From a virus (Duplodnaviria; Caudoviricetes), in the IMG/VR virus record IMGVR_UViG_3300016467_000102, positions 1 through 32,988 of that record: a stretch of 32,988 nucleotides of DNA. One strand, 5' to 3'. Positions 799-22,308 of the stretch are shown here, in pieces; position 1 is the stretch's first letter; each line of letters opens with the position of its first letter. Below the pieces are notes generated by a model that worked only from the letters and a program-made list of their open reading frames with translations, had not been told where the DNA came from and ran no database searches. The position numbers were made by a program, and so were the translations under genes.

Positions 799-885
799 TT
801 AAAGACTGATTCTTCCGTTTCTTTGAACTAGATCATTCAAGATCAACTGGACAACAAGGGCAAGGGCAATTACGAAATAAATCAT
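799..885 (-). CDS. 28-aa membrane micropeptide (not in ORF track)
   Basis: MIYFVIALALVVQLILNDLVQRNGRISL*; first ATG downstream of the promoter box at 926-933; hydrophobic N-terminal helix. Confidence 0.55.
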   Translation of the reverse strand: MIYFVIALALVVQLILNDLVQRNGRISL

Positions 886-913
886 TTTTCAAGGGGTTTA
901 GATTAGTAGCACA

Positions 914-1269: not shown

Positions 1270-1298
1270 GATTTTTATTGTTTAGATGTTCTGTCGTT

Positions 1299-1421: not shown

Positions 1422-2015
1422 ATGACGGTAAAAGAAGGAATCGAAAAAATCCGCTTGATGCTGGCTTCAGAATTTGAAGTAGATCAGGTAGAGACTAGCG
1501 AACCAGAGGCACCAGTCGCAGAATTAGCTTTTGAAACTTACGATCTTAAAGACGGATCTAAGATTGACTTGAGCGGTTTAGAGATTGGAGCTGAAGCGAG
1601 CTTAGTGGATGAAAGCGGTAATTCATCTCCCGCACCAGATGGCGAGTTTGAATTAGTAGACGGTACTATGATCACGGTCGTAGGAGGTAAGGTAGAAGGC
1701 ATTGAGACACCTCAGGCAGAAGCTGAACCTATTGAAGCACCAGAGGCAGAGATGCCAATGGAATCGGACAAGTTCGAAGAAATGAACGGAAGCATCTCAT
1801 CTCTACAAGCAGAGAATGAAGCTTTAAAAGCGAAGATCGCATCGATCGAGGGTAAATTCTCTCAAGCGATCAATGATCTTTCTGACGTAGTTTTAGGACT
1901 TGCTTCAACTCCAGGCGCTGGTCCTATCCAAGCACCTAAAAATTCTTTTTCTCAAGTAGAAAAAAGAGAGGAAAAAATCGACAGATTTCTTTCAAAAATT
2001 AAAAATTTAAAATAA
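1422..2015 (+). CDS. Capsid scaffolding protein (putative)
   Basis: Very acidic, PDGEFELVDGTMITVVGGKV motif, C-terminal coiled coil, directly upstream of the capsid gene. Confidence 0.7.
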   Translation: MTVKEGIEKIRLMLASEFEVDQVETSEPEAPVAELAFETYDLKDGSKIDLSGLEIGAEASLVDESGNSSPAPDGEFELVDGTMITVVGGKVEGIETPQAEAEPIEAPEAEMPMESDKFEEMNGSISSLQAENEALKAKIASIEGKFSQAINDLSDVVLGLASTPGAGPIQAPKNSFSQVEKREEKIDRFLSKIKNLK

Positions 2016-2035
2016 CAATTTAACAAACAAAAAAG

Positions 2036-2998
2036 ATGGCATTTGTAGTATCTTCATTGGCTAATTATACAGAAGAGAACGCTACCCAATTAGTAGCTTC
2101 ATCTGTATTAGGTGCAAAAACAATCTCTTTGATCAAGGATCAAGGAAACGTAATGCTTGGCGTAAAATCTGCTGAGACGGTTAATATCATGGACACTGAC
2201 GCGTTCTTCCAAGATGGATCATCTTGCGGATTCAACGCTTCAGGTACAACTACTTTTACTCAACGTACTTTAACGGTAGGTAAAATCAAGGTAAACGAGG
2301 CTTTATGTCCAAAAGATTTAGAAGCTAAGTATTTACAGAAGGCATTGCCTGCTGGTTCTTCTTACGATTCAACGGTTTTCGCTGCTGAGTACTCACAACG
2401 TAAGGCTGACAAAATCGCTTCTCAATTAGAGATCGCAGTTTGGCAAGGTGACACAGCATCTGCAAACGGTAACTTAAACAAGTTTGATGGCTTTGCTAAG
2501 TTAATCGCTGCTGCTTCTGCTTCAGTAATCCATGCTAACACGACTACTTACTACGGTACTCCTTTAGCTGCTTCTGCTGGTATCACTACTTCAAACGTGA
2601 TCGCAGTAATCGACGCAGTTTACAAGGCATTACCTGCTGAGATCGTAGCTAAAGATGATGCGACTATCTTCGTAGGAATGGACGTATTCCGTACTTACAC
2701 AATCGCATTGAAGAACGCGAACTTATTCGCTTACAACTTCGACGGAAAGGCAGATTCTGAATTGATGCTTCCAGGAACTACTATCAAAGTGGTAGCGGTA
2801 CAAGGTTTGAACGGAACTTCTAAGATCTACGGTGGTCGCGTTTCTAATATGTTCTATGGAACTGACTTATTAGATGAGCAAGAGCGTTTCGAATTGTTCT
2901 TTGCTAAAGAAGCTGATCAAGTTCGCTTCGTAGCTGAGTTCAAGGCTGGCGTTCAAATCGCTTTCCCTGCTGAGATGGTAGATTTCATCTTAGCTTAA
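2036..2998 (+). CDS. Major capsid protein
   Basis: 320 aa, strongly biased high-expression codon usage, follows the scaffold; CP.DLE..Y and EIAVWQGD...N.NKFDG motifs typical of Bacteroidota phage capsids. Confidence 0.85.
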   Translation: MAFVVSSLANYTEENATQLVASSVLGAKTISLIKDQGNVMLGVKSAETVNIMDTDAFFQDGSSCGFNASGTTTFTQRTLTVGKIKVNEALCPKDLEAKYLQKALPAGSSYDSTVFAAEYSQRKADKIASQLEIAVWQGDTASANGNLNKFDGFAKLIAAASASVIHANTTTYYGTPLAASAGITTSNVIAVIDAVYKALPAEIVAKDDATIFVGMDVFRTYTIALKNANLFAYNFDGKADSELMLPGTTIKVVAVQGLNGTSKIYGGRVSNMFYGTDLLDEQERFELFFAKEADQVRFVAEFKAGVQIAFPAEMVDFILA

Positions 2999-3015
2999 TT
3001 CTTACCAATAAGTTC

Positions 3016-3050
3016 GGGGAGCTTCCTTTGGATAGGACTCCCCTAATTTT
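3016..3050 (+). terminator. Hairpin after capsid gene (partial terminator or stabiliser)
   Basis: GGGGAG..TCCT/AGGA.CTCCCC stem followed by TAATTTT. Confidence 0.55.
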
Positions 3051-3071
3051 AACCTTTTAAATTTAAAAATA

Positions 3072-3584
3072 ATGGCTTGCGCATTAACTCAAGGATATTC
3101 CTTAGATTGCAGAGATTCATTAGGCGGAATCACGGAAGTGTATTTCATTGAAAAAGGGAACGTATCTAGCACGACTGAGGCGAGCGGTGTGATCACTGCA
3201 ATCACTAAGGGAAGCGGTAAGGTTTTTAGAAAATATGAATTAGTTCCAGGAACTTCTTCTTTGACTGAGAACATCAACGCTAACGTACAGAACGGAACCG
3301 TATTCTACGCTCAAGAATTATCAATCATTCTTAACAAATTGCAAGCTAACACAAGAAACGAAATTCTTTTGTTAGCACAGAACACTTTACTTGCGGTTGT
3401 TGGTGACAATAACGGCAAATACTGGTTCTTAGGTAAGGTCCACGGATTGAACCTATCAGGTGGTAATGGTGCAACGGGAACGGCTCAAGGAGATCGCTCT
3501 GGTTATACATTAACATTCTCAGCTTCTGAGTCTTCATTGGCTCCAGAGGTAGCTTCAAACATTATCGCAGGATTAACTGCTTAA
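3072..3584 (+). CDS. Major tail tube protein (putative)
   Basis: 170 aa starting MAC.LT.G..LDC.DS.GGI..VYF, with C-terminal G...GD.SGYTLTF; high-expression codons. Confidence 0.7.
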   Translation: MACALTQGYSLDCRDSLGGITEVYFIEKGNVSSTTEASGVITAITKGSGKVFRKYELVPGTSSLTENINANVQNGTVFYAQELSIILNKLQANTRNEILLLAQNTLLAVVGDNNGKYWFLGKVHGLNLSGGNGATGTAQGDRSGYTLTFSASESSLAPEVASNIIAGLTA

Positions 3585-3609
3585 TTAGATAGTCGTTTGG
3601 TTAGACGGG

Positions 3610-3637
3610 GAGGGGGCGAAAGCCTCCTCTTTTTTTT
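3610..3637 (+). terminator. Intrinsic terminator
   Basis: GAGGGGGC-GAAA-GCCTCCTC followed by T8. Confidence 0.9.
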
Positions 3638-3659
3638 GTTTAATAAAATAATTAATCCT

Positions 3660-3671
3660 TTGCTATTTAAT
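3660..3671 (+). promoter_or_regulatory. Putative late promoter motif
   Basis: TTGCTATTTAAT immediately after a terminator and 4 nt before ATG 3676. Confidence 0.55.
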
Positions 3672-3675
3672 ATCG

Positions 3676-4062
3676 ATGATTCACTTTACTAAAGGACAAA
3701 CACAAAAAGTAATTTTAACCTTGAAGGAAAAACAAACTCTTTCAAGTCCTAATTATTTGTTTTATTTCACGTCCAGAGTGACTGATCTTAGTGTCGCTTT
3801 CGTAGTCCTTGGATCCAGTGATCTATCTGGATTTAAGGACCGTTACAATGAGTTTGACATAGTAGTCAATACACATTTTGCGAACGTGACAAGTGGTGAA
3901 TTTAACTATTCGATCTACGAACAGATTTCGAGCTCGAATCTAGATCCTGCTTTAGCCACTGGGCTAGTGGAATCTGGACAGATGTCCTTAAAGAATTCGA
4001 CTGAATTTGAATATACCACATACAACCAAACGAATAACACTTACAAGGTTCGCGATATATGA
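3676..4062 (+). CDS. Virion-module protein of unknown function
   Basis: 128 aa, beta-rich, translationally coupled to the portal gene (4-nt ATGA overlap). Confidence 0.7.
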   Translation: MIHFTKGQTQKVILTLKEKQTLSSPNYLFYFTSRVTDLSVAFVVLGSSDLSGFKDRYNEFDIVVNTHFANVTSGEFNYSIYEQISSSNLDPALATGLVESGQMSLKNSTEFEYTTYNQTNNTYKVRDI

Positions 4063-6035
4063 GCAATACCAATTTTTTAAATGTCCTAACCTTCGCAGAA
4101 GCAAGGCAGCCAGAATACTCTGAGAAAAAAGGAGAGAATGGTGGATACATTGAATTCGGAAAAAAGAACGATTACCCTAATTACCTGGTCGATCTATTTA
4201 GCAAATCTGCTAAGCACAATGCGATCGTAAAAAGCAAGGTAAATTATATTACTGGAAACGGATTCAAGCCAGTAGATGAGAACGATCAGGTCGCTCAGGA
4301 GTTTATCGATAAGCCTAACCCGTTTGAATCCTTAAATGACATTCTAAAAAAGGTATCGACAGACGTCGAGATCTTTGGAGGTGCTTATCTTCAAGTTATC
4401 TGGAGCCAAACTGGTGGTCAGATTTCGGAGATTTATCACCTGGATTATACTAAGGTCCGCACAAATGAAGATAATACACAATTCTGGTATAGCGAAAACT
4501 GGCAAGACAATAAATATAAGCGCTCTATTTACAACGCTTTTAACGATAAATTGCCAGTAGGAACACAGATTTTGTACCTAAAAGAGTACCGTCCAAACCT
4601 TTCTGCTTATTCATTGCCTGGTTATTTAGGTGCTTTGAACTATATCGAGTCAGACATCGAGGTGTCTAAGCACGTTTTAGGCAATGCACAGACTGGATTC
4701 AGTGCTTCTAAATTGATCACGCTTCCTAATGGTGAGCCACAAGACGAAGAAAAACGCCAGGTAGAGCGTAAATTTACTGATCGTTTCTCTGGATCTGATG
4801 GTAAAAAGTTTATTCTTTCCTTCGTGAATGATGCTTCAAGAAAGCCGATCATTGAGGATCTAGGAGCTTCCGATATTACTAAGGAAGATTTTGCTAATGT
4901 CGATAAGATCATTGAGAAAAACGTGTATGCTGGACACCAGATCACATCTCCTGATTTATTTGGTATTGCTACACCTGGTCAGCTAGGATCACGCCAGCAA
5001 ATGCGCGATTCTTACGAGATCTTCAAAAACACTTACGTCAATGATAAGCAAATATATCAAGAACAAGTATTCAGTCTACTTGCCAAACTACGCGGTGCTA
5101 ATGACGGGCTACAAATAATTCCAGTCGAGCCGATCGGCATGGAGTTCTCTGAAGCTACGATCGCTCAAAACTTGACTAAAGATGAGATCCGCGAGAAACT
5201 TGGAGCTCCTAAGCTAGAAGCGAAAACTTCTGGAACTTCTCAGGATGTGATCGACGCGATTAATAGCTTATCGCCTTTAGTAGCGAATAAAGTTCTTGAG
5301 TCAATGACACCAAATGAGGTCCGCGCTTTGGTTGGCTTAGGTGCTGAGCAAGGTGGATCTGAACTTGATGGTGCACCAGTACAAGCTGGCGCTTTTAAGT
5401 TTAGCGAAGACGATGTAATCTCGATCTTCGATCAGTTTGGAGAGAGCAAATCTAATTACTCCATATTTCGCACAAGAGACGCGTTCTCTGCCATGCCTAA
5501 TGACTTAGAGGAGACGATGAATTTAGACTTTGCTACACAAGAATTAACGCGTCTAGAAGCGAATGTCTTGGACCTGATCCAGAAGGATAAAAGAATCACT
5601 CCAGAGATCATCGCTGGAACCGTTAAGACGGATCTAGGGATCATCAATAAAATTATGGATAGCTTGGAAGAGCGCGGATTGATCAAGTCCACAAATGTAA
5701 AGGGAACCGTCGAGAGAATCTTGACTTCTCCCCTATCTGAGATCACTGACACTAAGCCATCAACTAAGAGCTTCATGGTCCGCTATTCTTACGAGTGGAG
5801 ATCATCGATCCCAGTAGGACAGAGAAATACTAGCGCACATCCTAGCCGTCAATTCTGCGCTCGATTGATGCAATTAGATAAACTTTATACCAGGGCAGAG
5901 ATCGAAGCGATCAGTTTGCGCCTAGGTTATTCAGTGTTTGATCGTAGAGGTGGCTGGTGGACAATGCCAAACGGAGAACATTCTCCTTCTTGCCGTCACG
6001 TCTGGGCTTCTCAGGTAGTAATTAAAAAAGACTAA
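4059..6035 (+). CDS. Portal protein with C-terminal winged-HTH and MuF/head-morphogenesis-like extensions
   Basis: Portal motifs (FG.KNDYP.YL, S.KHNAIV.SK..YI.GNG, GHQITSP.LFGI). wHTH-like segment at ~aa 495-555. C-terminal SR.FC...GG...P.CRH.W segment. Confidence 0.8.
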   Translation: MSNTNFLNVLTFAEARQPEYSEKKGENGGYIEFGKKNDYPNYLVDLFSKSAKHNAIVKSKVNYITGNGFKPVDENDQVAQEFIDKPNPFESLNDILKKVSTDVEIFGGAYLQVIWSQTGGQISEIYHLDYTKVRTNEDNTQFWYSENWQDNKYKRSIYNAFNDKLPVGTQILYLKEYRPNLSAYSLPGYLGALNYIESDIEVSKHVLGNAQTGFSASKLITLPNGEPQDEEKRQVERKFTDRFSGSDGKKFILSFVNDASRKPIIEDLGASDITKEDFANVDKIIEKNVYAGHQITSPDLFGIATPGQLGSRQQMRDSYEIFKNTYVNDKQIYQEQVFSLLAKLRGANDGLQIIPVEPIGMEFSEATIAQNLTKDEIREKLGAPKLEAKTSGTSQDVIDAINSLSPLVANKVLESMTPNEVRALVGLGAEQGGSELDGAPVQAGAFKFSEDDVISIFDQFGESKSNYSIFRTRDAFSAMPNDLEETMNLDFATQELTRLEANVLDLIQKDKRITPEIIAGTVKTDLGIINKIMDSLEERGLIKSTNVKGTVERILTSPLSEITDTKPSTKSFMVRYSYEWRSSIPVGQRNTSAHPSRQFCARLMQLDKLYTRAEIEAISLRLGYSVFDRRGGWWTMPNGEHSPSCRHVWASQVVIKKD

Positions 6036-6038
6036 GGA

Positions 6039-6620
6039 ATGAAAAATATCTGCTTTATAAACGTAAACACGATCAAGGAAAGATCAGCGCTTCATTCGAA
6101 CGTCGATGATAAATTAATCCTTCCAGAGATTTTGACGGCACAAGACATGTATATCTTGCCTGCTTTAGGATCTGCTTTATACGATCGATTGCAGGATGGG
6201 ATTGATAATAATAATCTGACGGCAGACGAGGTGGATTTATTAGATAATTTCATCACAAACGCCTTAGTTTATTACACGCTTTCTGAGCTTCCAGTGGGAT
6301 TGTCTTATCAGTTTTATAACAAAGGATTAATCAGAAAGACAAGCGACAACACAGACACGCCAAACATGCAAGATCTGATAGATGTGGCTAACAGATATCG
6401 CACACGCGCTGAGTTTTACACAGAGAGATTGATCAAGCACCTAAAGCAGGTATCATCTACTTCTGATAAGTTCCAGGAATATGTGAACTACGGATCAGGT
6501 GTGGATATTATCAAGCCAGAACGCGACGCTTACAAAGCTTCGATCTGGTTAGGTGATGACTGCGGATGTGTACCGATGAGCTTCGAGGAAAGATACCAGG
6601 GAGAGAATGGTCTCTGCTAA
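6039..6620 (+). CDS. Head-tail adaptor-like protein (putative)
   Basis: 193 aa, helical, follows the portal; AQD.YI.P.LG..LY..L motif. Confidence 0.55.
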   Translation: MKNICFINVNTIKERSALHSNVDDKLILPEILTAQDMYILPALGSALYDRLQDGIDNNNLTADEVDLLDNFITNALVYYTLSELPVGLSYQFYNKGLIRKTSDNTDTPNMQDLIDVANRYRTRAEFYTERLIKHLKQVSSTSDKFQEYVNYGSGVDIIKPERDAYKASIWLGDDCGCVPMSFEERYQGENGLC

Positions 6621-6631
6621 AAAATAAAAAG

Positions 6632-6745
6632 ATGCCGAAAGCGTATAGCACAAAAAACATAAAAAAACTCCAGGTTTACCTGGCTACCCAAACAAATGGC
6701 AATCAAGCAACTGACATTAAATCAAACAATCAAACTAATAAGTGA
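6632..6745 (+). CDS. Possible 37-aa basic peptide overlapping the next gene
   Basis: MPKAYSTKNIKKLQVYLATQTNGNQATDIKSNNQTNK*; ATG follows an A-rich leader and fills the 6621-6695 gap. Confidence 0.4.
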   Translation: MPKAYSTKNIKKLQVYLATQTNGNQATDIKSNNQTNK

Positions 6746-7151
6746 TTTAGGCTCCGCACACGAGCAGATAAACACGGTTTACTTTGGTGATATTTGGGAG
6801 TTCTTAAAGACTGACAATACCTATCCAGCGATGTTCTATTCATTGACTGGATCGTCGATCTCTGGTAAACAATTAAATTTAGATTTCTCTCTGTTCTTCC
6901 TGGATCGTCAATTACAAGACGAGTCGAATGAAAATGAGGTCCTTTCTGATCAGTTATTGATCGCGCAGGATATCATCTCAATGATGCGCTATCCTAAATT
7001 TGACTGGGAGATTGGCGATCAGGTGACGATGGAATTCTTTACAGAAAAAGAGGAGGACTACCTGGCAGGAGTAAAGGCAGATGTGACCGTTTCCTTCCCG
7101 ATGTTATCAGACAGATGTCAAGTTCCAACAGATTTTAATTATCCTAACTAA
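6696..7151 (+). CDS. Tail terminator/completion-like protein (putative)
   Basis: 151 aa, acidic, YP.M motif, alpha/beta pattern, sits in the neck gene cluster. Confidence 0.5.
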   Translation: MAIKQLTLNQTIKLISDLGSAHEQINTVYFGDIWEFLKTDNTYPAMFYSLTGSSISGKQLNLDFSLFFLDRQLQDESNENEVLSDQLLIAQDIISMMRYPKFDWEIGDQVTMEFFTEKEEDYLAGVKADVTVSFPMLSDRCQVPTDFNYPN

Positions 7152-9655
7152 TGGCAAATAAAAAAGTAAGTCAATTAACCAGTAAGCCCTCAGTCCTTAC
7201 TACTGATTTGTTCCCGATCGCTGATCCTACAACTGGTCAGCTTTATAAAACTACTATATCTGACCTAGGCACTGCCATAGGTTCGGGTGTTAGTTCAGTT
7301 AATAGCTTGGTGGGTGCAGTGGTTTTAGATACTGACGATATACAAGAGCTAGTAAGTCCGACAAATAAATGGTTTACAGATACTAGAGCGAGAGCAGCGC
7401 TTTCTGCTTCCTCTCCTTTGACTTATAATTCTGGGACTGGCGTCTTTGGTATTCAAGTGGCTAACGGTTCACAGAATGGTTATTTATCTTCTGCGGACTG
7501 GACTACTTTTAACGCTAAACAAGCGGCACTCTCTGGAACTGGTTTCGTTAAAATTTCTGGAACTACAATCAGCTACGATAATAGTACTTATGCTTTAGAT
7601 TCTGTGGTAGTTAAATTAACTGGAAATCAGACAATAGCTGGAACTAAAACTTTTTCAGATGGTACTTACCACGATTATGGTTTACTTCTAAAGCACGGAA
7701 CTTCTACAAATGCTTCTGGATATACTGGTATAGCTGGCACTTCAACTGGTTTAAGTATTGGTGTAGGTACTCCTTATTATTCTAATTTGGTATTTAGTAC
7801 TTCTGCAATTTATACTTACACTTTTCCTAACGCAACTGGAACGCTTGCCTTAACTTCCGATTTAAGTTCTTATTTACCTTTAAGTGGTGGCACTTTAACT
7901 GGAGCGTTAAGCGGAACTTCTGTAAGTTTATCTTCTTCAGTTACCGCTACAAACTTTATTCTTAGCGGCGCAACTGGTAATACTGGCCTTTATTACGGAC
8001 ATACCGATAGAGTAGTTTTAGCTAACTACACCGCTGGAGGTATTGACTTTGAAGTAAACGGTGGCTCTATTGTAGCTACTTTATTCCCTAGCGGTAACTT
8101 TGGCTTAGGTATTTCTTTAGATGCAGGCTACAAACTTGATGTAAACGGAACGGCTAGAATATCTGGAGCTTTAAGCGGTACGAGTGCGAGCTTTACAAGT
8201 TCATTATTATTAAATAGAAGCTCAACAACATCTTCAACACCTATAAGATTTGCAACCACTGGCACTAATGATTGGTTTATAGGACAATCTCCATTAGGTA
8301 CTTCAGATTCTAATTTATATTTTTATTCTTATGGAACTTCGAGTTCTGTATTTACTTTAACTAAGGCATCTGGAGCCGCCACGTTTAGCTCTAGTGTTAC
8401 GGCGACAAAATTAGCTTTAAATACTACGGTTTCTTCTAGTACATTAGAGGTTTTAGGCACAAATAGTCAATGGGCTGGAAGTTTTACTGGAAATTCTTCA
8501 GCTAGTAGTTCTTATGGTGTTGTTGTAGCAGCAGGAACTAATTCAAATGATATTGCTTTTAGAGTTAATAATGCCGCTAACTCTTCAACATATTTTAATG
8601 TTAGAGGAGATGGCAACGTCGGCATTGGGACTACTTCGCCAGTAGGAGATGGAACAGCATTAAATGTATATGGTACTACTTATGCTACTTTAAAATTACA
8701 AAATAGTACAACAGGAACACTATTAACAGATGGCAGTGATTTTGTTGTAAGTGGCTCTGATTTAATAATTAAAAATAGAGAAGCTGGAAATATAGCTTTA
8801 TACTCAAATAATACAGAAAGAATTAGATTAACTTCTGCTGGTAATTTAGGAGTAGGTACTACAACTCCAATTTCTGCTGCAGGTTATACTGGATTTACTG
8901 TATATAATGCAACGACTGGAGGTATAATTCAAACTACTAACGGAACGGTAGATTCAAGAATGCAAATATCAGCTTCAGCTGGGTATTCTGGTACATTTTC
9001 TAGCCACGATTATATTTTGACAACGGCCGCTACCGAACGTATGCGAATTACTTCCTCTGGCAACGTCGGCATAGGGACTAGTTCGCCAAATGCAAAGTTA
9101 GAAGTTTTACACGATGGATATGGAGTTACAACTTCTACATATAGTGGAATTCATATTAGAAATAGTAATAGTACGGTAGGGTCAAGTGTTGCAGCTAGAA
9201 TTTCTTTTAGTGCTGATAATAATACATCAATGGCTGGAATTATTGAGCAAAGAAGAGATGGCGGAGATACTTTTTGGATGAGAACTTTGCCTGGATATTC
9301 TGCTAATGGTGCTATTTATATTCAATCTCAAACAAATGGAGTATATTTAGCAAAAGATGGTATTGCTTGGATTGCAAATTCAGATGAATCTATTAAAACA
9401 GATTTAGTTCCTATTGAAGATGCAATAAATAAAGTATCCTCTTTGCGTTCAATGATTGGTAGATATAAAACTGATACAAAAGAAACAAAACGTTCTTTCC
9501 TAATTGCACAAGATGTACTTGAAGTTTTACCAGAAGCAGTAACTAAAGATTCACAAACTGGAATTTTAGGGATAGCATATACTGATGTCATTCCATTACT
9601 TGTAGCTTCAATCAAAGAATTAAAAGCAGAATTAGACACTTTAAAGAATAAATAA
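7151..9655 (+). CDS. Tail fibre / receptor-binding protein with C-terminal peptidase S74 intramolecular chaperone
   Basis: S/T/G-rich, GNVGIGT-type repeats, C-terminal SD..IK...LIAQDV..V.PEAV...Y..VIPLLV.SIKEL. Confidence 0.9.
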   Translation: MANKKVSQLTSKPSVLTTDLFPIADPTTGQLYKTTISDLGTAIGSGVSSVNSLVGAVVLDTDDIQELVSPTNKWFTDTRARAALSASSPLTYNSGTGVFGIQVANGSQNGYLSSADWTTFNAKQAALSGTGFVKISGTTISYDNSTYALDSVVVKLTGNQTIAGTKTFSDGTYHDYGLLLKHGTSTNASGYTGIAGTSTGLSIGVGTPYYSNLVFSTSAIYTYTFPNATGTLALTSDLSSYLPLSGGTLTGALSGTSVSLSSSVTATNFILSGATGNTGLYYGHTDRVVLANYTAGGIDFEVNGGSIVATLFPSGNFGLGISLDAGYKLDVNGTARISGALSGTSASFTSSLLLNRSSTTSSTPIRFATTGTNDWFIGQSPLGTSDSNLYFYSYGTSSSVFTLTKASGAATFSSSVTATKLALNTTVSSSTLEVLGTNSQWAGSFTGNSSASSSYGVVVAAGTNSNDIAFRVNNAANSSTYFNVRGDGNVGIGTTSPVGDGTALNVYGTTYATLKLQNSTTGTLLTDGSDFVVSGSDLIIKNREAGNIALYSNNTERIRLTSAGNLGVGTTTPISAAGYTGFTVYNATTGGIIQTTNGTVDSRMQISASAGYSGTFSSHDYILTTAATERMRITSSGNVGIGTSSPNAKLEVLHDGYGVTTSTYSGIHIRNSNSTVGSSVAARISFSADNNTSMAGIIEQRRDGGDTFWMRTLPGYSANGAIYIQSQTNGVYLAKDGIAWIANSDESIKTDLVPIEDAINKVSSLRSMIGRYKTDTKETKRSFLIAQDVLEVLPEAVTKDSQTGILGIAYTDVIPLLVASIKELKAELDTLKNK

Positions 9656-9656
9656 T

Positions 9657-10022
9657 ATGGCATTTTTATGGGTAATTTCACAGCTTGACTCAATCCCTTC
9701 TATTGACGGAATGGACAAAGTAATTAGCGTAATTCATTACAGAGCGCAAAAGGAATATAAATCCTTAGCAACCGCTAACTTTGGTTCAGAACCAAGTGTT
9801 TTATTTACGGCGGACACTTACGGAGCTTTAAGCGTTCCAGCTCCACACGAAGCGAGCTTCACTCCTTACGATGAGGTCACAAAGGAAATGGTCGAATCTT
9901 GGCTTGAAGATTCCCTAGACTGCGAAGCAATCGAAGCGAATTTAGATGCACAAATAGAGAACTTTTTGAATCCTCCGATAGTGGCTTATCCGCTACCTTG
10001 GTCTGATCCTCAAAAAGTTTAG
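9657..10022 (+). CDS. Tail-fibre-associated protein
   Basis: 121 aa directly after the fibre gene; W.I..LD...VI..IHYR...F.PY..VT...V..WL...LPW pattern. Confidence 0.6.
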   Translation: MAFLWVISQLDSIPSIDGMDKVISVIHYRAQKEYKSLATANFGSEPSVLFTADTYGALSVPAPHEASFTPYDEVTKEMVESWLEDSLDCEAIEANLDAQIENFLNPPIVAYPLPWSDPQKV

Positions 10023-10067
10023 CAGTTTTGCTATATATTATCAGAATTAATTTAAACAAACCAAACG

Positions 10068-10337
10068 ATGAAATTAGATTTTAATTTTGACCTAGTCGGA
10101 TTAGACGGTCAAGCCATTGAAGGCGCGAATGCAGGTAAATTGTTAGCTAATGCTTTAGCTCAGGGATCAAAAGGCGATGCCTTGAAGTTCTGGGATTGGG
10201 CGGTAAGCTTAAACAAGGGAGAGGTTCTTGATTTAGACTCATCTGATCAGGAAACGATCAAAAATTTTATCAAGGATTCTGAAGGTTTCACGATCCTTGC
10301 AAAAGCTCAATTATTAAAGGTAGTAAAGAAGGATTAA
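10068..10337 (+). CDS. Hypothetical protein
   Basis: 89 aa, preceded by the late-like motif TTGCTATATA (10028-10037). Confidence 0.7.
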   Translation: MKLDFNFDLVGLDGQAIEGANAGKLLANALAQGSKGDALKFWDWAVSLNKGEVLDLDSSDQETIKNFIKDSEGFTILAKAQLLKVVKKD

Positions 10338-10341
10338 TTAA

Positions 10342-10662
10342 ATGAATTTGGAAGACATTCTTGGGCAATCTGTCACGGGGGCGATCGCCGCACTGATCGG
10401 ATGGCTAGTAGGTAGAAGAAAAGAGCAGGCTGAGATCACAACCACAGAGCTCGATCAAACCACTAAGGCCATCGAAATCTGGAGACAGATGGCTCAAGAA
10501 ATGTCTGACAAAGTGAAGGAGCTTAGCGATAAGATCGACATCTTAACTGCTGAGGTTCACTCTTTAAAATCTGAGAACTCAAACCTGAAAACCAAACTAG
10601 GGATAATTGATGAAAGTAACCAAAGCAAGCCAAAAGGGACTCGATCTAATAAAAAGATTTGA
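10342..10662 (+). CDS. Holin-like protein (one N-terminal TM helix plus coiled coil)
   Basis: GAIAALIGWLVG hydrophobic helix followed by RRK; lies immediately before the endolysin. Confidence 0.55.
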   Translation: MNLEDILGQSVTGAIAALIGWLVGRRKEQAEITTTELDQTTKAIEIWRQMAQEMSDKVKELSDKIDILTAEVHSLKSENSNLKTKLGIIDESNQSKPKGTRSNKKI

Positions 10663-11065
10663 GGGGCTTGAATTAAAACCTTACAAATGTCCTGCTGGGA
10701 TTCCGACTATCGGATACGGAAACACTTACTATCCTTCTGGAGCCAAAGTAAAGCTCACAGATCCAGCGATCACCAAAGAAAAAGCAGAGGAACTTCTTAA
10801 ATTTCTGCTTGGATCCTACGAAAAGGCGGTAGATTCTTTCTGCCGTGATGACATTAACCAAAATCAGTTCGACTCTCTTGTGTCTTTTGCCTATAATTGC
10901 GGAGTTAATAACCTAAAATCTTCCACACTTCTAAAAAAAGTCAATGCAAACCCGAATGATCCGACGATCAAAGCGGAGTTTTTAAAGTGGAACAAGGCAA
11001 ACGGACGAGTGCTAGCTGGATTAACAAAACGACGTCAAGCAGAAGCTGACCTTTACTTCTCATAA
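10607..11065 (+). CDS. Endolysin, GH24 phage lysozyme
   Basis: IKRFEG...Y.CPAG.PTIGYG, QFD.LVSFAYN.G, GL..RR..E..LY motifs; start may be ATG 10610. Confidence 0.95.
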   Translation: MMKVTKASQKGLDLIKRFEGLELKPYKCPAGIPTIGYGNTYYPSGAKVKLTDPAITKEKAEELLKFLLGSYEKAVDSFCRDDINQNQFDSLVSFAYNCGVNNLKSSTLLKKVNANPNDPTIKAEFLKWNKANGRVLAGLTKRRQAEADLYFS

Positions 11066-11067
11066 TC

Positions 11068-11517
11068 ATGCGATATTTACTTATTCTTTTGGCGTGTGTT
11101 GCATTATCTTCTTGCAAGCATACAAAGACATTAACTGAGTACAAAGAAACGCTTAGAATCGACACAATCAAAAGCGAGAAAATAGTCGAGAAGTTCAGAG
11201 CGGTTCGCGATACTTTAGTGATCACAAATCCATGCGATTCTTCTGGGATCCTATCATCTTTTTATTCGCGCCTGGTACTACCTAATGGATCAGTGACGAT
11301 TAAGTCCGACAAGGGCCAGATCAGAGCCACGATCGACATCGACTCAATGAAAAACGAGATCGAAAATAATTACAGAAACTCCCAGGTAAAATGGATCGAA
11401 TATCGAGACAAGGAAGTGATCAAGTATCAGGTTCCTACCTGGGTGGTAATGCTACTATTTGCGGAGGCGATTATGTTGGTAGCATGGCTTTACGTTAAAT
11501 TTGGTCTTCGTGTATAA
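11068..11517 (+). CDS. Unimolecular spanin (putative)
   Basis: Lipoprotein signal ending LSSC plus a C-terminal TM helix, directly after the endolysin. Confidence 0.7.
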   Translation: MRYLLILLACVALSSCKHTKTLTEYKETLRIDTIKSEKIVEKFRAVRDTLVITNPCDSSGILSSFYSRLVLPNGSVTIKSDKGQIRATIDIDSMKNEIENNYRNSQVKWIEYRDKEVIKYQVPTWVVMLLFAEAIMLVAWLYVKFGLRV

Positions 11518-11704
11518 AATAGATATAGATCCTATCGAAAATCCTAGGAACCTCACCACTGAAACGCTTGATAAAATGCTTGAAGTCATGGAGGCTATCG
11601 AGCACGTCGATGATGCTGGCTTTGTTCTACGAATGAAGCTTTTAAATAACGTCGAGTTTCTTGTCGATCAATTAATGGAAGAATATGAGCAAAGAAATAA
11701 GTAA
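11501..11704 (+). CDS. Hypothetical protein
   Basis: 67-aa acidic helical ORF overlapping both neighbours; start uncertain. Confidence 0.6.
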   Translation: MVFVYKIDIDPIENPRNLTTETLDKMLEVMEAIEHVDDAGFVLRMKLLNNVEFLVDQLMEEYEQRNK

Positions 11705-12680
11705 GAAGGAAGCGATTGAAAAACACTTCTATTCTACTAATATGACACGCGCAGATTTTGAGCGTGAAAACTGGGAGAATTACGGCTATAAAAGCTTTGA
11801 ATTATTTCATCGCCAAATGAGTAGATGGGATATCTCAGTCAAAAAAAGATCAGAGCACTGGAAGAAGACCAGACCAAGCGCGAAGATTGAATCATTCAAC
11901 CTGGACGAGCTCGATAATTTTGGCATAGAGCCAGGGATTGGCAAGGAGTACACCAGTGCTCGCCTTCCTGAGCACTTAAAAAAGATCGGGATCCTATCAG
12001 ACATTCACGTTCCTTTTCATTCCTTAGAAGCGCTTACTTGCGCGATCAAGTATTTAAAAGAGCAAGAGATCGACTGCTTGTATCTAAACGGAGACACCTT
12101 CGATTTTTACTCAATATCCAGACATGAGAAAGAAAAGGATCTCAGAGACTTCCCGCGCGAGATCGAGATGGCTAGAAACTTTCTTCAAAAGCTACGCGAC
12201 ATCTTTCCGCTGATCCCGATCTATTTCAAAGCAGGAAACCACGAGAACAGATTCCAGCGCTACCTATTTAGCCAGGCAGAAGAGTTCGCTGGATTGCATG
12301 AATTGCAATTCGATAAGTTCTTTAGAATGGATCACTTGAAAATCGAGTGGGTAGAAGACTGGCAAGGGATGTTTATGGGGGATTTACTTGTTATTCATGG
12401 ACACGAGGGTTTTGGTGTGGGAGGAATTAATCCTTCGCAGTCCTTATTTAACAAGATGTTTTGTAATACTTTAATGGGGCATGTTCATAGACAGACTACC
12501 ACAACAAAGAAAAACGGATTCGGAGAGTTAATACAGACGCATTCGACTGGATGTCTTACAACAATATCGCCAAAGTATATGCCATATAATCAGCATACTC
12601 AAGGATTTGCACTGGTAGAAATTAACGAGGGTAAATCAAAAGTTAAATTACTTGCTATAAGAGACGGAAAAATTTATTAA
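11685..12680 (+). CDS. Calcineurin-like metallophosphoesterase
   Basis: SDIH, GDTFD, GNHE, HGH and GHVH motifs. Confidence 0.9.
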   Translation: MSKEISKKEAIEKHFYSTNMTRADFERENWENYGYKSFELFHRQMSRWDISVKKRSEHWKKTRPSAKIESFNLDELDNFGIEPGIGKEYTSARLPEHLKKIGILSDIHVPFHSLEALTCAIKYLKEQEIDCLYLNGDTFDFYSISRHEKEKDLRDFPREIEMARNFLQKLRDIFPLIPIYFKAGNHENRFQRYLFSQAEEFAGLHELQFDKFFRMDHLKIEWVEDWQGMFMGDLLVIHGHEGFGVGGINPSQSLFNKMFCNTLMGHVHRQTTTTKKNGFGELIQTHSTGCLTTISPKYMPYNQHTQGFALVEINEGKSKVKLLAIRDGKIY

Positions 12681-12772
12681 CTTTGTTAAAAGCAACTGCA
12701 ACTGCTAACTAACACATTAACGGCCCATTTTATTTATAAGACGTTGCAGACTTATATTTAATTTGGGCCTTT
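12678..12772 (+). ncRNA. Promoter box plus two-hairpin kissing-loop leader RNA of the HNH gene
   Basis: -7 box TAACTTTG (12678-12685); loop CTGCAAC (12696-12702) is complementary to loop GTTGCAG (12743-12749). Confidence 0.55.
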
Positions 12773-12779
12773 ATATTTT

Positions 12780-13271
12780 ATGGAAATTTGGAAAAAAGTA
12801 AATTGCGAATTTGAAAATTACGAAATAAGTAATTTTTCTGAAGTTAGAAATACTTTAACTGGTAAGATTTTAAAACCTAATATAGATAGGTATGGATATC
12901 TTTATATTGCATTAAGCGCTAAAGGAAAAACAAAAAAGTTTAAAATTCATAGGCTTATGGCTTTAACTTTTATACCGAATCCCTTAAATAAAAAAGAGGT
13001 TAATCATAAAGATGGCAATCCTAAAAATAATTTAATTTATAATCTTGAATGGATTACTCATTTTGAGAATCAAGCTCATAAGGTTTTATCATGGAATAGA
13101 TCAAGTAAATTTTTAGGAGTTAGTTATTATAAGACAACAAAAAAATGGAAGGCTCAAATTCAGGTAAACAAAAAGAAAATAGCGCTTGGATATTACAAAA
13201 CAGAAGAGGAGGCGTATCAGGCTAGAGTAAATTTTGAAAAAGAGAACGGTATTATTAATAAATATATTTAA
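12780..13271 (+). CDS. Free-standing homing endonuclease, NUMOD4-HNH-AP2
   Basis: E.WK...YEISN (NUMOD4), HRL.A..FIPN...VNHKDG...NN...NLEW (HNH), GVSY..KW.AQI...LGYY.TEEEA (AP2); markedly AT-rich. Confidence 0.9.
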   Translation: MEIWKKVNCEFENYEISNFSEVRNTLTGKILKPNIDRYGYLYIALSAKGKTKKFKIHRLMALTFIPNPLNKKEVNHKDGNPKNNLIYNLEWITHFENQAHKVLSWNRSSKFLGVSYYKTTKKWKAQIQVNKKKIALGYYKTEEEAYQARVNFEKENGIINKYI

Positions 13272-13361
13272 ATTTGTAAAGTAAATTAATTGTTTTTCAT
13301 AGTGTTTTATAGGTTTAGATGACAATCAGAAAGCCCTTGGATCTTATCCTTGGGCTTTTTT
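13269..13361 (+). ncRNA. Candidate trans-acting antisense sRNA against early-gene leaders
   Basis: -7 box TAAATTTG (13269-13276), ~80-nt non-coding unit ending in a terminator; contains TTTTTCAT and GGTTTAGATG, complementary to ATGAAAAA and CATCTAAACC. Confidence 0.5.
13330..13361 (+). terminator. Intrinsic terminator
   Basis: AAAGCCC-tt-GGAT-ctt-ATCC-tt-GGGC followed by T6. Confidence 0.85.
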
Positions 13362-13382
13362 GTGCTTAAAAAATAATTTAAA

Positions 13383-13431
13383 AAAAAAAGTTTAAAAAAA
13401 TTTTTTATTATCAAAATAAGGCATACCTTTG
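13383..13431 (+). promoter_or_regulatory. Early host-sigma promoter, copy 3
   Basis: AAAAAAAGTTTAAAAAA element and -7 box TACCTTTG (13424-13431), same layout as the two leftward promoters. Confidence 0.75.
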
Positions 13432-13475
13432 TAATATCGAAAGCAACGAAGCTAAGATAAAAACATCTAAATCAA

Positions 13476-13586
13476 ATGAGAGAGCACCTAAAAGAAGTCA
13501 CTGGATCTGAACTAGCTCAGGCCACAATCATCACGCTGATCGTCATCGGCATCCTATCAGTAATCACAATAATTTCAAACCTTTAA
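13476..13586 (+). CDS. 36-aa membrane micropeptide (not in ORF track)
   Basis: MREHLKEVTGSELAQATIITLIVIGILSVITIISNL*; first ORF after promoter 3, preceded by the ACATCTAA leader. Confidence 0.65.
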   Translation: MREHLKEVTGSELAQATIITLIVIGILSVITIISNL

Positions 13587-14241: not shown

Positions 14242-14432
14242 CAGAGACTTATCCTCAGGTCCTGAAGGTGGATCTAAAATCTCCTTCTGGGAATTACTAC
14301 ACCGTGATCGAGCGGTTCGCATCTAGCGAAGAATATGTAAAATATGTGGACTGGCAATTATGGTCAGGATATAAAGTGATCGGAACCCGTCCATACATGA
14401 ATTTAAAAGAGAATCAAGATGACCAGAATTAA
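14235..14432 (+). CDS. Hypothetical protein
   Basis: 65 aa, overlaps both neighbours in a compact operon. Confidence 0.6.
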   Translation: MVAETYPQVLKVDLKSPSGNYYTVIERFASSEEYVKYVDWQLWSGYKVIGTRPYMNLKENQDDQN

Positions 14433-14607
14433 AAAAATGAATGTTTATCAGCAATGTGCTGAGCGCCTAAATGCTAAGGGGATCAAGCCCTTTAGCGCTA
14501 GGGAATGGACCACTGCAATAGTTCAGCAGACCGTCTATGGAAAGGTTAAATACCCAGAGGTTTTAGAAGAAATTAAACTAATCTACAATGAGCACGAAAA
14601 AGCTTAA
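14419..14607 (+). CDS. Small HTH-like DNA-binding protein (putative)
   Basis: AERLNAKGIKP...W...V resembles the HTH-like segment of recombinase DNA-binding domains. Confidence 0.5.
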   Translation: MTRIKKMNVYQQCAERLNAKGIKPFSAREWTTAIVQQTVYGKVKYPEVLEEIKLIYNEHEKA

Positions 14608-14773
14608 CTTTAACGACTGGATGGATCACATAGCTAATCAGCTCCAGGCAGACTATCGGAAACTTTATTATTCATCTAAATATCAAAACGATGCTAACAT
14701 TCGAAGAGTACCACAAGCGCAACCCAAGGATCTACGAAGAGTTCAAACGCTTCGCCTTTTTGCTGATCAATAG
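14588..14773 (+). CDS. Hypothetical protein
   Basis: 61 aa; long overlap with the next ORF, so only the N-terminal half looks constrained. Confidence 0.4.
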   Translation: MSTKKLNFNDWMDHIANQLQADYRKLYYSSKYQNDANIRRVPQAQPKDLRRVQTLRLFADQ

Positions 14774-14996: not shown

Positions 14997-15012
14997 ACAT
15001 CTAACCAAGACA

Positions 15013-15204
15013 ATGACAAGAAAGCAATTTGCAAAGCATCTAGTGAAGCGTTTCCAGGATGCACATCCACAGATCAAGAAAAATAAAGAGGAAGCCATCG
15101 CCTCCGCTATCCTAGGCGCTGAGATCGTCATGGAAGCGATCCACGCTGGAGACTTGGATCTCAGCTACTGGGCTGAATTGAGAGAAGATATAATCGATAT
15201 GTAG
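15013..15204 (+). CDS. Small helical protein (paralog family)
   Basis: K.FAK.LV..F...A.....E....YW.E.RE.I pattern shared with 15207, 19845 and 20263. Confidence 0.7.
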   Translation: MTRKQFAKHLVKRFQDAHPQIKKNKEEAIASAILGAEIVMEAIHAGDLDLSYWAELREDIIDM

Positions 15205-15407: not shown

Positions 15408-15598
15408 CATTAGAAGACAGATGCTTTCTAGCAGTGGTAAATGTCCAGATTGCGCACCTAAAAATCGATCTTAATGAGTATTCTCATATCATGAAATACT
15501 ACAATCCAGATGTCAAAGCTTTTGATTTGATCCTGGAGAAGATGAGCGAAGCGGAGGCGGAGATCATGAGACTAGAAAATCTTTTAAATGATTTGTAG
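15404..15598 (+). CDS. Hypothetical protein
   Basis: 64 aa, ATGA-coupled to the previous gene. Confidence 0.6.
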   Translation: MTLEDRCFLAVVNVQIAHLKIDLNEYSHIMKYYNPDVKAFDLILEKMSEAEAEIMRLENLLNDL

Positions 15599-15629
15599 GA
15601 TGTCACAATTTTAGATATATTTGTGACAT
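15592..15629 (+). promoter_or_regulatory. Replication-operon promoter overlapped by an inverted repeat
   Basis: TTTG (15592-15595)-N20-TATATTTG (15616-15623); ATGTCACAA-N12-TTGTGACAT (15600-15629). Confidence 0.7.
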
Positions 15630-15717
15630 AATCAGCGCAAGGGGTGAGAGTCTTGCGGTGATTAATGGGTTAAAAACCAACTAAGCCAGTCTGATCTCTC
15701 ACTCAGCTGGCTTTTTT
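15629..15717 (+). ncRNA. Two-hairpin kissing-loop leader RNA / attenuator of the replication initiator
   Basis: Loop GTGAGAG (15644-15650) is complementary to loop CTCTCAC (15696-15702); hairpin 2 ends in a T-tract. Confidence 0.65.
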
Positions 15718-15728
15718 ATTTTATCATT

Positions 15729-16457
15729 ATGCAAAAAGACGCCTATTATTTCCCTCATTTTTGTAACGCTCGACACGATCGCAAGATTAAGCGATTAAGA
15801 AAGGAGCTTGGACTGGAAGGATACGGAATTTATTTCATGCTATTAGAGACGCTTAGAGAGCAACAAGATTTGATGTTTCCAATGGATGACATCGATCTGC
15901 TTGCTGAGGAGTTTGGGACCTCTGAGCAAAAGATCAGAGTCACGATCTGCAACTATGAACTTTTCGAGCTCGATCAGGATCAAAAATTCTTTTCTCCTAA
16001 AATGTTGGTTTACCTAGAACCTTACTTTAAGATGCGAGAACAAAGAAAATTAGCTGGAAAAGCATCGGCCGATAAACGGATGCTCAACGACCGTTCAACG
16101 ACCGTTCAACAAAGTAAAGGAAAGGAAAGTAAAGAAGAAGAAAGTAAAGGAAAAGAAAATAAAGAAATCTTTCGTTTGACTTATTCAACGAATCCATTGA
16201 GAAACGATCTGTTTGAAAAGTGGATAAAATACAAGAAAGAAAAAAAATCTACATACACTCCTTCTGGAATCAATCAGTTACTAAAGGATTGGGAAGACGT
16301 ATCTACTGAGGATCTAGCGAAGGCGATCAACTTAAGTATCTCTAATAACTGGCAAGGATTATTCCCACCTAAAAAAAATACTACATCAGGTAGTACAGAT
16401 ATTAGGAATTTTCCTACCTTGCAGAACAAACCTATAATACCAGAAGAATGGCAGTAA
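15729..16457 (+). CDS. Replication initiator (DUF4373/Lin1244-like N-terminus)
   Basis: YYFPH..NAR.D.KI..LR..LG.EGYGIYF.LLE.L, C-terminal SI.NNWQGLF, internal iterons, upstream of DnaB. Confidence 0.75.
   Translation: MQKDAYYFPHFCNARHDRKIKRLRKELGLEGYGIYFMLLETLREQQDLMFPMDDIDLLAEEFGTSEQKIRVTICNYELFELDQDQKFFSPKMLVYLEPYFKMREQRKLAGKASADKRMLNDRSTTVQQSKGKESKEEESKGKENKEIFRLTYSTNPLRNDLFEKWIKYKKEKKSTYTPSGINQLLKDWEDVSTEDLAKAINLSISNNWQGLFPPKKNTTSGSTDIRNFPTLQNKPIIPEEWQ
16084..16168 (+). repeat. Putative replication origin: iterons plus purine-rich tract
   Basis: TCAACGACCGT x2.5 (16084-16110), then ~4 imperfect 15-bp AAAGTAAAG.. units. Confidence 0.65.
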
Positions 16458-18477: not shown

Positions 18478-18697
18478 TAAAAATCTGCCAGCTAATTATC
18501 AGGCTTGCATCGCCTGGATCGAGTCACAATTGACACGAGAGACACGATCAATCGATATGCCTGGTGTTATCATTCACGATCTAAATGGATCGCTTAGAAT
18601 GAATCTATTAAGGATTTTAAATAATCACGGAGCTGAGAGGCGAGCTGCCTTTCTGCGAACTAGAAGAATAAAAGACTACCTATCTAAAAAACCATGA
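18452..18697 (+). CDS. Hypothetical protein
   Basis: 81-aa ORF, start uncertain. Confidence 0.6.
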   Translation: MNNKTLDTNKNLPANYQACIAWIESQLTRETRSIDMPGVIIHDLNGSLRMNLLRILNNHGAERRAAFLRTRRIKDYLSKKP

Positions 18698-19345: not shown

Positions 19346-19852
19346 GTGCAAAAGACCAGGAATCAAATTATCGAGGAGCTCTACCTATCCAAGGACATAG
19401 CGTCGGCTCTAAGAAAGATGCAACCTGCTAGTCTCCGCGATGATCTAAGGCAAGAGATGTTTATCTCCTTATGCAACCTACCAGAAGAAAAGTTCTGGAA
19501 CCTGCATGAGAATAATGCTCTTAAATTCTACCTGGTCCGCGCGATGCTTAACATGATCAGAAGCACTGGGATGAATCAGCCATTCTTTAAAAACTTTCGG
19601 GCGAAGTTTGAGTCAATCGAAGAGATCGACAATATAGCGGACCAGATCGACGATCGCAAAGACGAGAAAGAAAAGCTATTCGATCTACTAGACGAGAGGC
19701 GCAAAGATCTCTGCTGGTATGAGAATACCTTGCTTGATCAATATGTCGCTTCAAACTTTAATCAAATGGAGTTACACCGAAAGACTCGGATTCCTTATCC
19801 ATCCATAGTCAAGACCATTTCGCTAATTAAGAATAAACTCAAGGATGAATAA
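19346..19852 (+). CDS. Sigma-70/ECF-like transcription factor (candidate late sigma)
   Basis: DDL.QE.F..L region-2-like motif and C-terminal region-4-like HTH; GTG start. Confidence 0.6.
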   Translation: MQKTRNQIIEELYLSKDIASALRKMQPASLRDDLRQEMFISLCNLPEEKFWNLHENNALKFYLVRAMLNMIRSTGMNQPFFKNFRAKFESIEEIDNIADQIDDRKDEKEKLFDLLDERRKDLCWYENTLLDQYVASNFNQMELHRKTRIPYPSIVKTISLIKNKLKDE

Positions 19853-21786: not shown

Positions 21787-22308
21787 ATGGAAAACTGGTA
21801 TGATTTAAAAGGATATGAAGGAGAATATGAAATATCAAATTTGTTTAATGTAAGATCATTGGATAGAATTGTAAAAAGACCAGGATCAAAAGGAGACATG
21901 AAAGTCAAAGGTAAAAATTTAAAACAATTTTTAGATAATAATGGATATTTAAGAGTTTCCATAAAAGGAAAATTTCATAGTCTTCATAGATTAATAGCTT
22001 TAAATTTTATACCTAGAATAGAAGGTAAAAACATTGTTAATCATAAAGATGGTAATAAGATTAACAATGATTTAAGCAATTTAGAATGGTGTAATTATTA
22101 TGAAAATAACAATCATAGTATAAAAAGAGAGAATACATCAAGCGGCTTAACTGGTGTGACGCTTCACAAAAGAACTGGACTATGGGTAGCTCAAATTCAC
22201 TTTAATAAAAAGATGAATAATTTAGGTTATTATAAAACTAAAGAAGAAGCACATAATGCTAGAAGAAACTTTGAGCTTCAGAATAACATTCAAAATCGCT
22301 ATTTATAG
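21787..22308 (+). CDS. Free-standing homing endonuclease, NUMOD4-HNH-AP2
   Basis: E.W.D..GYEG.YEISN...VRSLDR, HRL.A..FIP, VNHKDGNK.NN...NLEW, AP2 C-terminus; AT-rich. Confidence 0.9.
   Translation: MENWYDLKGYEGEYEISNLFNVRSLDRIVKRPGSKGDMKVKGKNLKQFLDNNGYLRVSIKGKFHSLHRLIALNFIPRIEGKNIVNHKDGNKINNDLSNLEWCNYYENNNHSIKRENTSSGLTGVTLHKRTGLWVAQIHFNKKMNNLGYYKTKEEAHNARRNFELQNNIQNRYL
22296..22307 (+). promoter_or_regulatory. Putative late promoter motif
   Basis: TCGCTATTTATA, 13 nt before ATG 22321. Confidence 0.55.

Follow-up and report, generated by a model that had tools for sequence, protein, structure and literature searches.

A predicted antisense small RNA mirrors the start regions of some early genes in a group of tailed phages

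Introduction

What is the role of a short segment that carries no plus-strand gene, stands between the late and the early genes of a phage, and reads on its complementary strand like the start of an early gene? We analyzed this question in a 32,988-base virus record (IMGVR_UViG_3300016467_000102), referred to here as the window, which looks like the almost complete genome of a small tailed phage. Its head, tail and lysis genes occupy 1422-11517, with an endolysin (about 10610-11065) upstream of a metallophosphoesterase. The early and replication genes begin at 13476 and include a replication initiator (15729), DnaB (16448) and RusA (17832); a terminase lies at 23696, and short minus-strand genes are found at 173, 778, 885 and 1269. 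A sequence-only reading of the segment at 13269-13361 had proposed a small RNA (sRNA) that shuts off translation of the early regulon by pairing with an address common to its gene starts. Here we examine this proposal in the window and in two sets of related phage loci.

Results

The genome points to a Bacteroidota host

The gene leaders of the window have no Shine-Dalgarno (SD) motif, and intergenic TAnnTTTG boxes, which match the Bacteroidota consensus as given in PMC7366714, lie upstream of the early units; from these two features together we infer that the host belongs to the Bacteroidota. Relatives of the phosphoesterase (60-69%) occur on short, possibly mis-binned contigs in metagenome-assembled genomes (MAGs) of Sediminibacterium and other Bacteroidota, which is a weak hint in the same direction; no prophage context was seen for them. 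We found no relative among cultured phages, only HNH similarity (14 records), and hence no annotated relative.

Several other features of the genome were observed. A sigma-like gene lies at 19346-19852, and a GCTATTTA-like motif stands 10-30 nt upstream of several late genes (3662, 10030, 22298, 24871 and 1388 on the plus strand, 199 on the minus strand); it is a candidate for a late promoter that the sigma-like protein may recognize. The prohead protease is fused to a zeta-toxin domain (PF06414; 31524-32987) and is convergent with a 57-aa ORF (3-173, minus strand) that has a late-type promoter, and in one relative (G015) a 198-aa protease stands alone; the fusion and the ORF are possibly a capsid-borne cargo or a toxin-antitoxin pair. 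A second free-standing HNH gene (21787-22308) lies downstream of a glycosyltransferase and has no structured leader.

The segment has the layout of a small RNA unit

The segment and its upstream neighbors comprise the following features:

11685-12680, plus strand: metallophosphoesterase, the last conserved gene of the late operon and the anchor for finding the element in relatives
12678-13271, plus strand: inserted HNH cassette from the phosphoesterase stop to the element, made up of a structured leader and a NUMOD4-HNH-AP2 gene (12780-13271)
13269-13276, plus strand: putative -7 promoter box TAAATTTG (TAnnTTTG) of Bacteroidota type, overlapping the HNH stop codon
13281-13361, plus strand: predicted small RNA of about 81 nt, its 5' end placed from the box and its body at about 13281-13329
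13293-13300, plus strand: anti-start word TTTTTCAT, complement of AUGAAAAA
13307-13321, plus strand: seed TTATAGGTTTAGATG, complementary to both the CATCTAAAC and the AAACCTATAA tag
13330-13361, plus strand: intrinsic-terminator-like hairpin with a U6 tail, which also terminates the late operon

The element thus runs from a TAnnTTTG box through a U/G-rich body to a plus-strand terminator, and its body is antisense to a tag at early gene starts. Box, U-rich body and terminator are present as the sequence-only reading had it; no plus-strand ORF of at least 40 aa crosses the element, and no -33 TTTG is evident upstream of the TAAATTTG box. This combination of promoter signal, terminator and missing ORF is that of a putative trans-encoded sRNA unit. 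The region 13283-13363 has a predicted fold of -18.9 kcal/mol (z -2.49), and the predicted accessibility of the seed is just 0.35-0.68. A generic terminator scan did not report the hairpin at 13330-13361, and a scan of the window for sigma-70 promoters and terminators gave no excess over shuffled sequences, sigma-70 being the wrong promoter type here. Rfam returned no match at the gathering threshold anywhere in the window; the best hit, to an unrelated family, had E 0.23 and 27 bits against a required 55. Among sequencing runs, none recorded as RNA was found to contain the segment, and contigs of three runs, whose RNA origin is a guess, did not cover 13312-13435.

The same reading had placed the segment at the 3' end of the lysis-region transcript. 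It does end the late operon, but the genes directly upstream are the metallophosphoesterase and the HNH gene, with the endolysin further up. The HNH cassette is present in 10 of 86 related loci (see below), most relatives being without it, and its insertion point is the 5' end of the sRNA unit. A TAnnWTTG box recurs at the HNH end in 8 of the 10 HNH-bearing loci, which fits selection on the box, though insertion may equally have left it as a by-product. The HNH leader (12678-12779) is itself a candidate structured RNA; it is conserved, starts with no Rfam match and has a TAnnTTTG box of its own. It occurs in the window and in L007, L013, L030, L050, L062, L065, L209, L234 and L236, with a two-hairpin form in L013 and L234. 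The loop of its hairpin, GTTGCAG, is the complement of a CTGCAAC further upstream in a pseudoknot-like arrangement, and L007 and L030 carry the compensatory pair GTTGTAG/CTACAAC.

Tags complementary to the seed stand at early gene starts in the window

Sites in the window that are complementary to the element, together with the early promoter that follows it, are listed below; fractions give tagged orthologs in relatives by seed class (A to D, defined in a later section), and all duplexes are predictions.

13381-13431, plus strand: early promoter, an A/T-tract block with a TACCTTTG box (13424-13431)
13464-13478, plus strand: tag and start of the first early gene 13476 (36 aa); A 15/20, B 24/24, C 10/10
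14673-14693, plus strand: tag and start of the operon-internal gene 14691 (88 aa); A 17/18, D 3/3, C 3/14, B 0/3
14998-15015, plus strand: tag and start of gene 15013; at -25.5 kcal/mol the best duplex among 53 starts
16428-16450, plus strand: AAACCTATAA tag and start of 16448, a DnaB-like helicase; duplex -19.3; 13/13 class A orthologs
18682-18696, plus strand: weak tag before gene 18694; duplex -13.6, z -1.0; A 0/4 at 7 nt, B 5/8
1267-1288, minus strand: tag and start of the early cassette gene 1269; duplex -21.2, reached in 0/200 shuffles; 12 kb away
883-903, minus strand: tag and start of the 28-aa ORF 885
776-789, minus strand: tag and start of gene 778

All eight motif strings quoted in the sequence-only reading are present where, and on the strand on which, it had placed them. 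Its target list is thus confirmed as to the tags; it had missed the DnaB start, and the ORF at 885 has only 28 aa. That reading had also staked itself on enrichment of the tag at early starts. With our own gene list and early/late labels, and a motif picked after the sites had been seen, 5 of the 21 early starts and 0 of the 31 other starts have CATCTAA within 25 nt (Fisher p 0.008); for the shorter ATCTAA the counts are 7/21 and 0/31, respectively (p 0.0009). There is no overall enrichment of CATCTAA in the window (10 copies against 7.33 +/- 2.38 in shuffled sequences; 17 of 100 shuffles reach 10).

When the predicted duplexes of the element with all 53 starts of the window are ranked, the top three are the early starts 15013, 1269 and 885, followed by DnaB, and the energies of early and late starts differ modestly (p 0.035). 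A genome-wide duplex scan is dominated by coding interiors, with early starts covered in 3 of the 24 best non-self duplexes, and duplex energy by itself does not single out targets genome-wide. The window alone makes a case that is suggestive and no more.

The promoter block at 13381-13431 is also found upstream of the minus-strand cassettes, at 933 and 1318. Three early cassettes (within 778-1420 on the minus strand and 13381-13475 on the plus strand) share this A/T-tract block and a hairpin leader, and the genes downstream of the first early promoter vary among close relatives, as in a swappable cassette slot. The element lacks the A/T-tract block found at these three cassette promoters.

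The element is conserved downstream of the phosphoesterase

A first set of 174 loci with a phosphoesterase 3' end, 122 of them distinct, gave 87 elements at a phosphoesterase identity of at least 55%, with two further loci cut and two of another layout; removal of L108, whose HNH gene is cut off, left 86 loci. A held-out set was fetched once the motifs had been fixed. It held 162 loci, of which 33 were removed (27 previously seen, 4 without the stop, 2 with a cut HNH gene); 80 distinct loci resulted, and 77 were analyzed with about four mis-parsed elements kept in. In all 86 + 77 distinct loci the element lies downstream of the metallophosphoesterase (or HNH) stop, as a stretch of 70-90 bases, and all listed elements share one orientation.

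The box is strict in 63 of the 86 loci, relaxed in 16 and missing in 7, and it decays to TAAATTAG in one class B subgroup; in the held-out set it is strict in 67/77. Element bodies contain 46% U, 19% G and 5% C, and of the 163 elements 155 carry a TTCAT-like mirrored start word. For the hairpin, the plus strand gives the better fold in 86/86 loci (mean -17.0 vs -11.0 kcal/mol), with a U tract (median 6) that exceeds the A run (median 3). The module occurs across lineages in which capsid identity is 31% (class B) or the capsid proteins give no match (class C). A rearranged group (L072, L235, L352, L423, L426 and L428) has its early genes on the opposite strand and keeps box, U/G-rich body and terminator after the phosphoesterase; its clear target matches are few. 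No such element was seen by eye in 31 distinct loci of more distant phosphoesterase relatives (about 41% identity or less).

Seed and tags change together between lineages

The loci fall into four main seed types, A (GGTTTAGATG, 28 loci including the window), B (GGTTTAGAATTG, 28 loci), C (GTTGTTG, 22 loci) and D (GGTTTAAGT, 4 loci), and five others. With class motifs defined after the first leaders had been seen, and gene starts in relatives called by a simple script, the cognate 7-mer lies within 25 nt of 55/294 early starts in class A, 52/357 in B, 36/280 in C and 4/56 in D, against 0-11 for the tags of the other classes. At late starts it is absent throughout (0/254, 0/228, 0/161 and 0/20; 0/663 in total). 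Of the cognate 7-mers in the early region, 57/74, 56/99, 44/74 and 4/7 are located at starts, although start windows make up about 5% of the bases. A count that makes no use of class motifs agrees: at least 8 nt are shared with the phage's own element at 201/987 early and 7/663 late starts. The seed classes track the phosphoesterase tree (a quick tree), so that the loci are non-independent and only about 4-8 independent seed switches lie behind all these counts, some four of them between classes, with four or five singletons.

The held-out set repeats this pattern. At least 8 nt of the phage's own element match 118/901 early starts, compared with 9-19 when the bodies were base-shuffled (five shuffles), and 2/558 late starts, compared with 5-9 for shuffled bodies. 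Co-variation between seed and leader, which the sequence-only reading had named as a check, is found at several unlinked starts and again in loci that played no part in defining the motifs.

Within single gene families, the tag switches with the seed. In classes A, B and C the 36-aa first gene carries the tag of its own class; among orthologs of a 253-aa gene the cognate tag is found in 15/18 (class B) and 12/13 (class C), and among those of an Erf-like annealing protein in 18/24 and 5/16. Singletons have private seed/tag pairs: TAAACCTTATCA in L029, TTCTAAACCAC in L231 and L365, and AATAAACCT in L422, while L431 has a 14-nt match, TAAACCTAACAAAA, directly upstream of two AUGs. For each of the four classes, first leaders have their lowest predicted duplex energy with the cognate class. 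The distance from seed to CAT in the element agrees with that from tag to ATG in the leader in classes B (11 and 11) and C (2 and 2) and disagrees in class A (15 vs 8). Fine co-variation within class A is poor, the seed-adjacent base matching in 14/27 loci.

Short, imperfect complementarity to several unlinked starts that is kept by co-variation is what would be expected of a trans-acting sRNA, and we regard the relatives as strong evidence for pairing between tag and mirror, with joint change between lineages. The claim that the whole early regulon is shut off is not supported. Only the 201 of 987 called early starts given above share 8 nt with the element, and some ortholog families are untagged (13597, 0/19; replication initiator 15729, 0/14) or nearly so (14419, 1/64).

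Two further observations concern these untagged genes. Gene 14419 (14419-14607) encodes a 62-aa protein that is conserved in 64 loci of all classes and is a candidate regulator; it is weakly similar to stand-alone recombinase DNA-binding domains (0.83, a lead only). Just upstream of the replication initiator lies a multi-hairpin element (15590-15735, z -4.2) with its own TAnnTTTG box at 15616, possibly a second small RNA, an attenuator or an origin; 'CAGCTGGCTTTTTT'-like ends comparable to those of this element precede small genes in relatives.

Alternative readings of the element

An unlikely alternative is that the element acts in cis as a safety catch. A late transcript running past the terminator would fold back on itself, which would let the seed pair with the leader of the first early gene, some 110-140 nt further downstream; only that gene would be silenced, all other tags being copies left by cassette duplication. 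No other site matches as tightly as the first leader, which has the cognate tag in 26/27, 25/26, 16/18 and 4/4 loci of classes A-D, and the three promoter cassettes have upstream sequence in common. Duplication of cassettes does not account for class-matched tags at operon-internal starts that overlap upstream coding DNA, such as the 14691 family, DnaB (13/13), Erf and the 253-aa gene. Moreover, 778, 885 and 1269 belong to cassettes on the opposite strand, and the seed sits upstream of the terminator and downstream of a box of its own.

Quite improbable, in our assessment, is a site that works at the level of DNA, in which a phage DNA-binding protein (candidates are the 62-aa protein 14419 and the class C helix-turn-helix protein) would use the tag as its operator, or the tag would be an inversion repeat, and the element would hold one inverted copy. 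Tags do stand just downstream of early promoters, the weak similarity of 14419 to recombinase-type domains would suit such a role, and start-associated tags with an unknown reader are described in Cluster K mycobacteriophages (PMC3203893). A DNA site leaves unexplained why 155/163 elements mirror a start codon, why the spacing agrees in classes B and C, why tags inside operons are tied to start codons, and why the bodies are low in C. All listed elements have one orientation, and none of five complete relatives has a tyrosine recombinase; promoter inversion was considered and rejected.

The sequence-only reading had itself named a decayed minus-strand gene as a finding that would count against it. 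On the minus strand the segment does read tag, spacer and ATG AAA like a real start, and the AT-rich region upstream could hide a promoter (relaxed box TAnnTTTR in 49/81 loci), so that an early-type leader with a real or decayed mini-gene might be imagined. We consider this very unlikely and have rejected the relic gene: the minus-strand ORF varies from 2 to 48 codons, shifts frame, has no common peptide and is missing in 4/86 loci; the strict box is found in 11/81 on the minus strand vs 62/81 on the plus strand; and the hairpin is better on the plus strand in 86/86. A relic would also not follow tag changes across lineages with capsids 31% identical or unalignable. That the segment is an ordinary late-operon 3' UTR, whose U-richness fits A-rich leaders by composition, is hardly credible and largely refuted, for although a terminator is required here anyway and the 7-mer is not enriched across the whole window, composition cannot yield the diagonal class matrix, the absence from late starts or the drop with shuffled bodies.

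Discussion

The segment downstream of the phosphoesterase is conserved, has plus-strand polarity and is complementary to tags at early starts, with seed and tags changing jointly between lineages; the tagged starts are on both strands and make up only about a fifth of early starts. The recognition of early-gene starts by RNA-RNA pairing has strong comparative support as a real conserved feature. We propose that the segment encodes a trans-acting antisense sRNA and that, in a phage that does not integrate, this RNA masks the start regions of some early genes, a reading to which we assign a probability of about 0.72.

In this proposal, an RNA of about 80 nt would be transcribed from the TAnnTTTG box of the element, or be the 3' end of late mRNA, or arise in both ways. 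Pairing would start at the G-containing seed AGGUUUAGAUG and extend through UUUUCAU over the AUG, with predicted seed/tag duplexes of -14 to -21 kcal/mol. The duplex would cover the A-rich leader that Bacteroidota ribosomes use instead of a Shine-Dalgarno sequence, and the outcome is predicted to be repression and not activation. Since the element lacks the A/T-tract block, its RNA is expected to build up more slowly, and the least certain part of the proposal is that it acts as a delayed brake: the accumulating RNA might lower expression of the genes that come first behind the strong early promoters, and also of some replication and recombination genes (DnaB, Erf). Read-through from late promoters, with the sigma-like gene 19346 as their possible partner, would add RNA late.

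Small phage RNAs that control genes of their own phage by base-pairing are known, and the element resembles P1 c4 and P4 CI RNA in this respect (PMC8201110, PMC4825925). As described there, c4 controls the antirepressor operon of P1 (PMC8201110), CI RNA stops transcription at seqA/seqC within the locus that encodes it (PMC4825925), and both serve lysogeny. Here, by contrast, one seed addresses many unlinked translation starts, no integrase was found, and Rfam gives no match. Nor does the window look like an immunity region of this type: no match to a repressor, HTH_3, antirepressor or integrase was found in it, and the tyrosine integrase domain (PF00589) is absent in 5/5 complete relatives. 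For this reason a role in the early-to-late change or in dosage control is likelier than lysogenic immunity, and immunity as suggested in the sequence-only reading finds no support in its lysogenic form; exclusion of phages of the same type by the RNA is possible. The related idea that the RNA stands in for a repressor in a phage without CI agrees with the gene content of the window but is not supported, since in class C 2/2 tested relatives (G006 and G008) have an HTH_3 regulator alongside the element.

A further likeness is to GibS of Bacteroides thetaiotaomicron, which represses Bacteroidetes mRNAs by pairing at the start codon, with an AT-rich, weakly structured 5' body placed over the start codons of SD-less mRNAs (PMC7366714). 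GibS differs in being a host RNA with metabolic targets and, according to the available text of PMC7366714, with no private tag that co-evolves; any sequence relation was compared through Rfam only. In function, the nearest analogue is T4 RegA, which competes with ribosomes on about 30 mRNAs; like RegA and the RegB nuclease, the predicted RNA would be a phage factor that acts at the initiation regions of many early mRNAs to turn them down and to make the passage from early to late easier (PMC3014915), except that those factors are proteins and the predicted agent here is an RNA.

Phage antisense RNAs that act on phage mRNAs include sar of P22, OOP and aQ of lambda, and STnc6030 of BTP1, each presented with a single phage target in the sections of PMC12197685 available to us, whereas the RNA predicted here is trans-encoded and multi-target. 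It is not a cis-encoded antisense RNA of the sar or OOP kind, for there is no conserved gene on the opposite strand and the targets are elsewhere. Tags at starts have also been described as the SAS of Cluster K mycobacteriophages, a 13-nt SD-like tag whose reader is unknown (PMC3203893). Those phages infect another host phylum, and the available text of PMC3203893 describes no antisense RNA; in the present phages, the mirror copy of the tag has a promoter box, a terminator and co-variation. Our tags, A/C-rich 7-12-mers in Bacteroidota-type phages, do not have the SAS consensus, and the resemblance is one of working only. We predict that the element works like a trans-encoded antisense sRNA outside every Rfam family. 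We found no description of a phage RNA that mirrors a shared early-gene tag in the literature, our coverage of which was incomplete.

A more far-reaching idea, which we hold only tentatively and think more doubtful than the reading above, is that SD-less Bacteroidota phages have an RNA-only regulon in which a private leader address is read by one antisense RNA. Address and RNA would diverge into specificity groups that time the early-to-late switch and might also form exclusion groups, silencing co-infecting phages with the same seed. If the proposed RNA is real, abundant uncultured freshwater phages would switch between gene classes by means of a single short RNA and an address tag that co-evolves with it, and this would give an RNA answer to the question of how small lytic phages lower their early genes. 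It would also suggest a reader for start-associated tags elsewhere, for instance the mycobacteriophage SAS, and the seed types A-D and the singletons would provide natural orthogonal RNA/leader pairs for testing and controlling translation in SD-less Bacteroidota.
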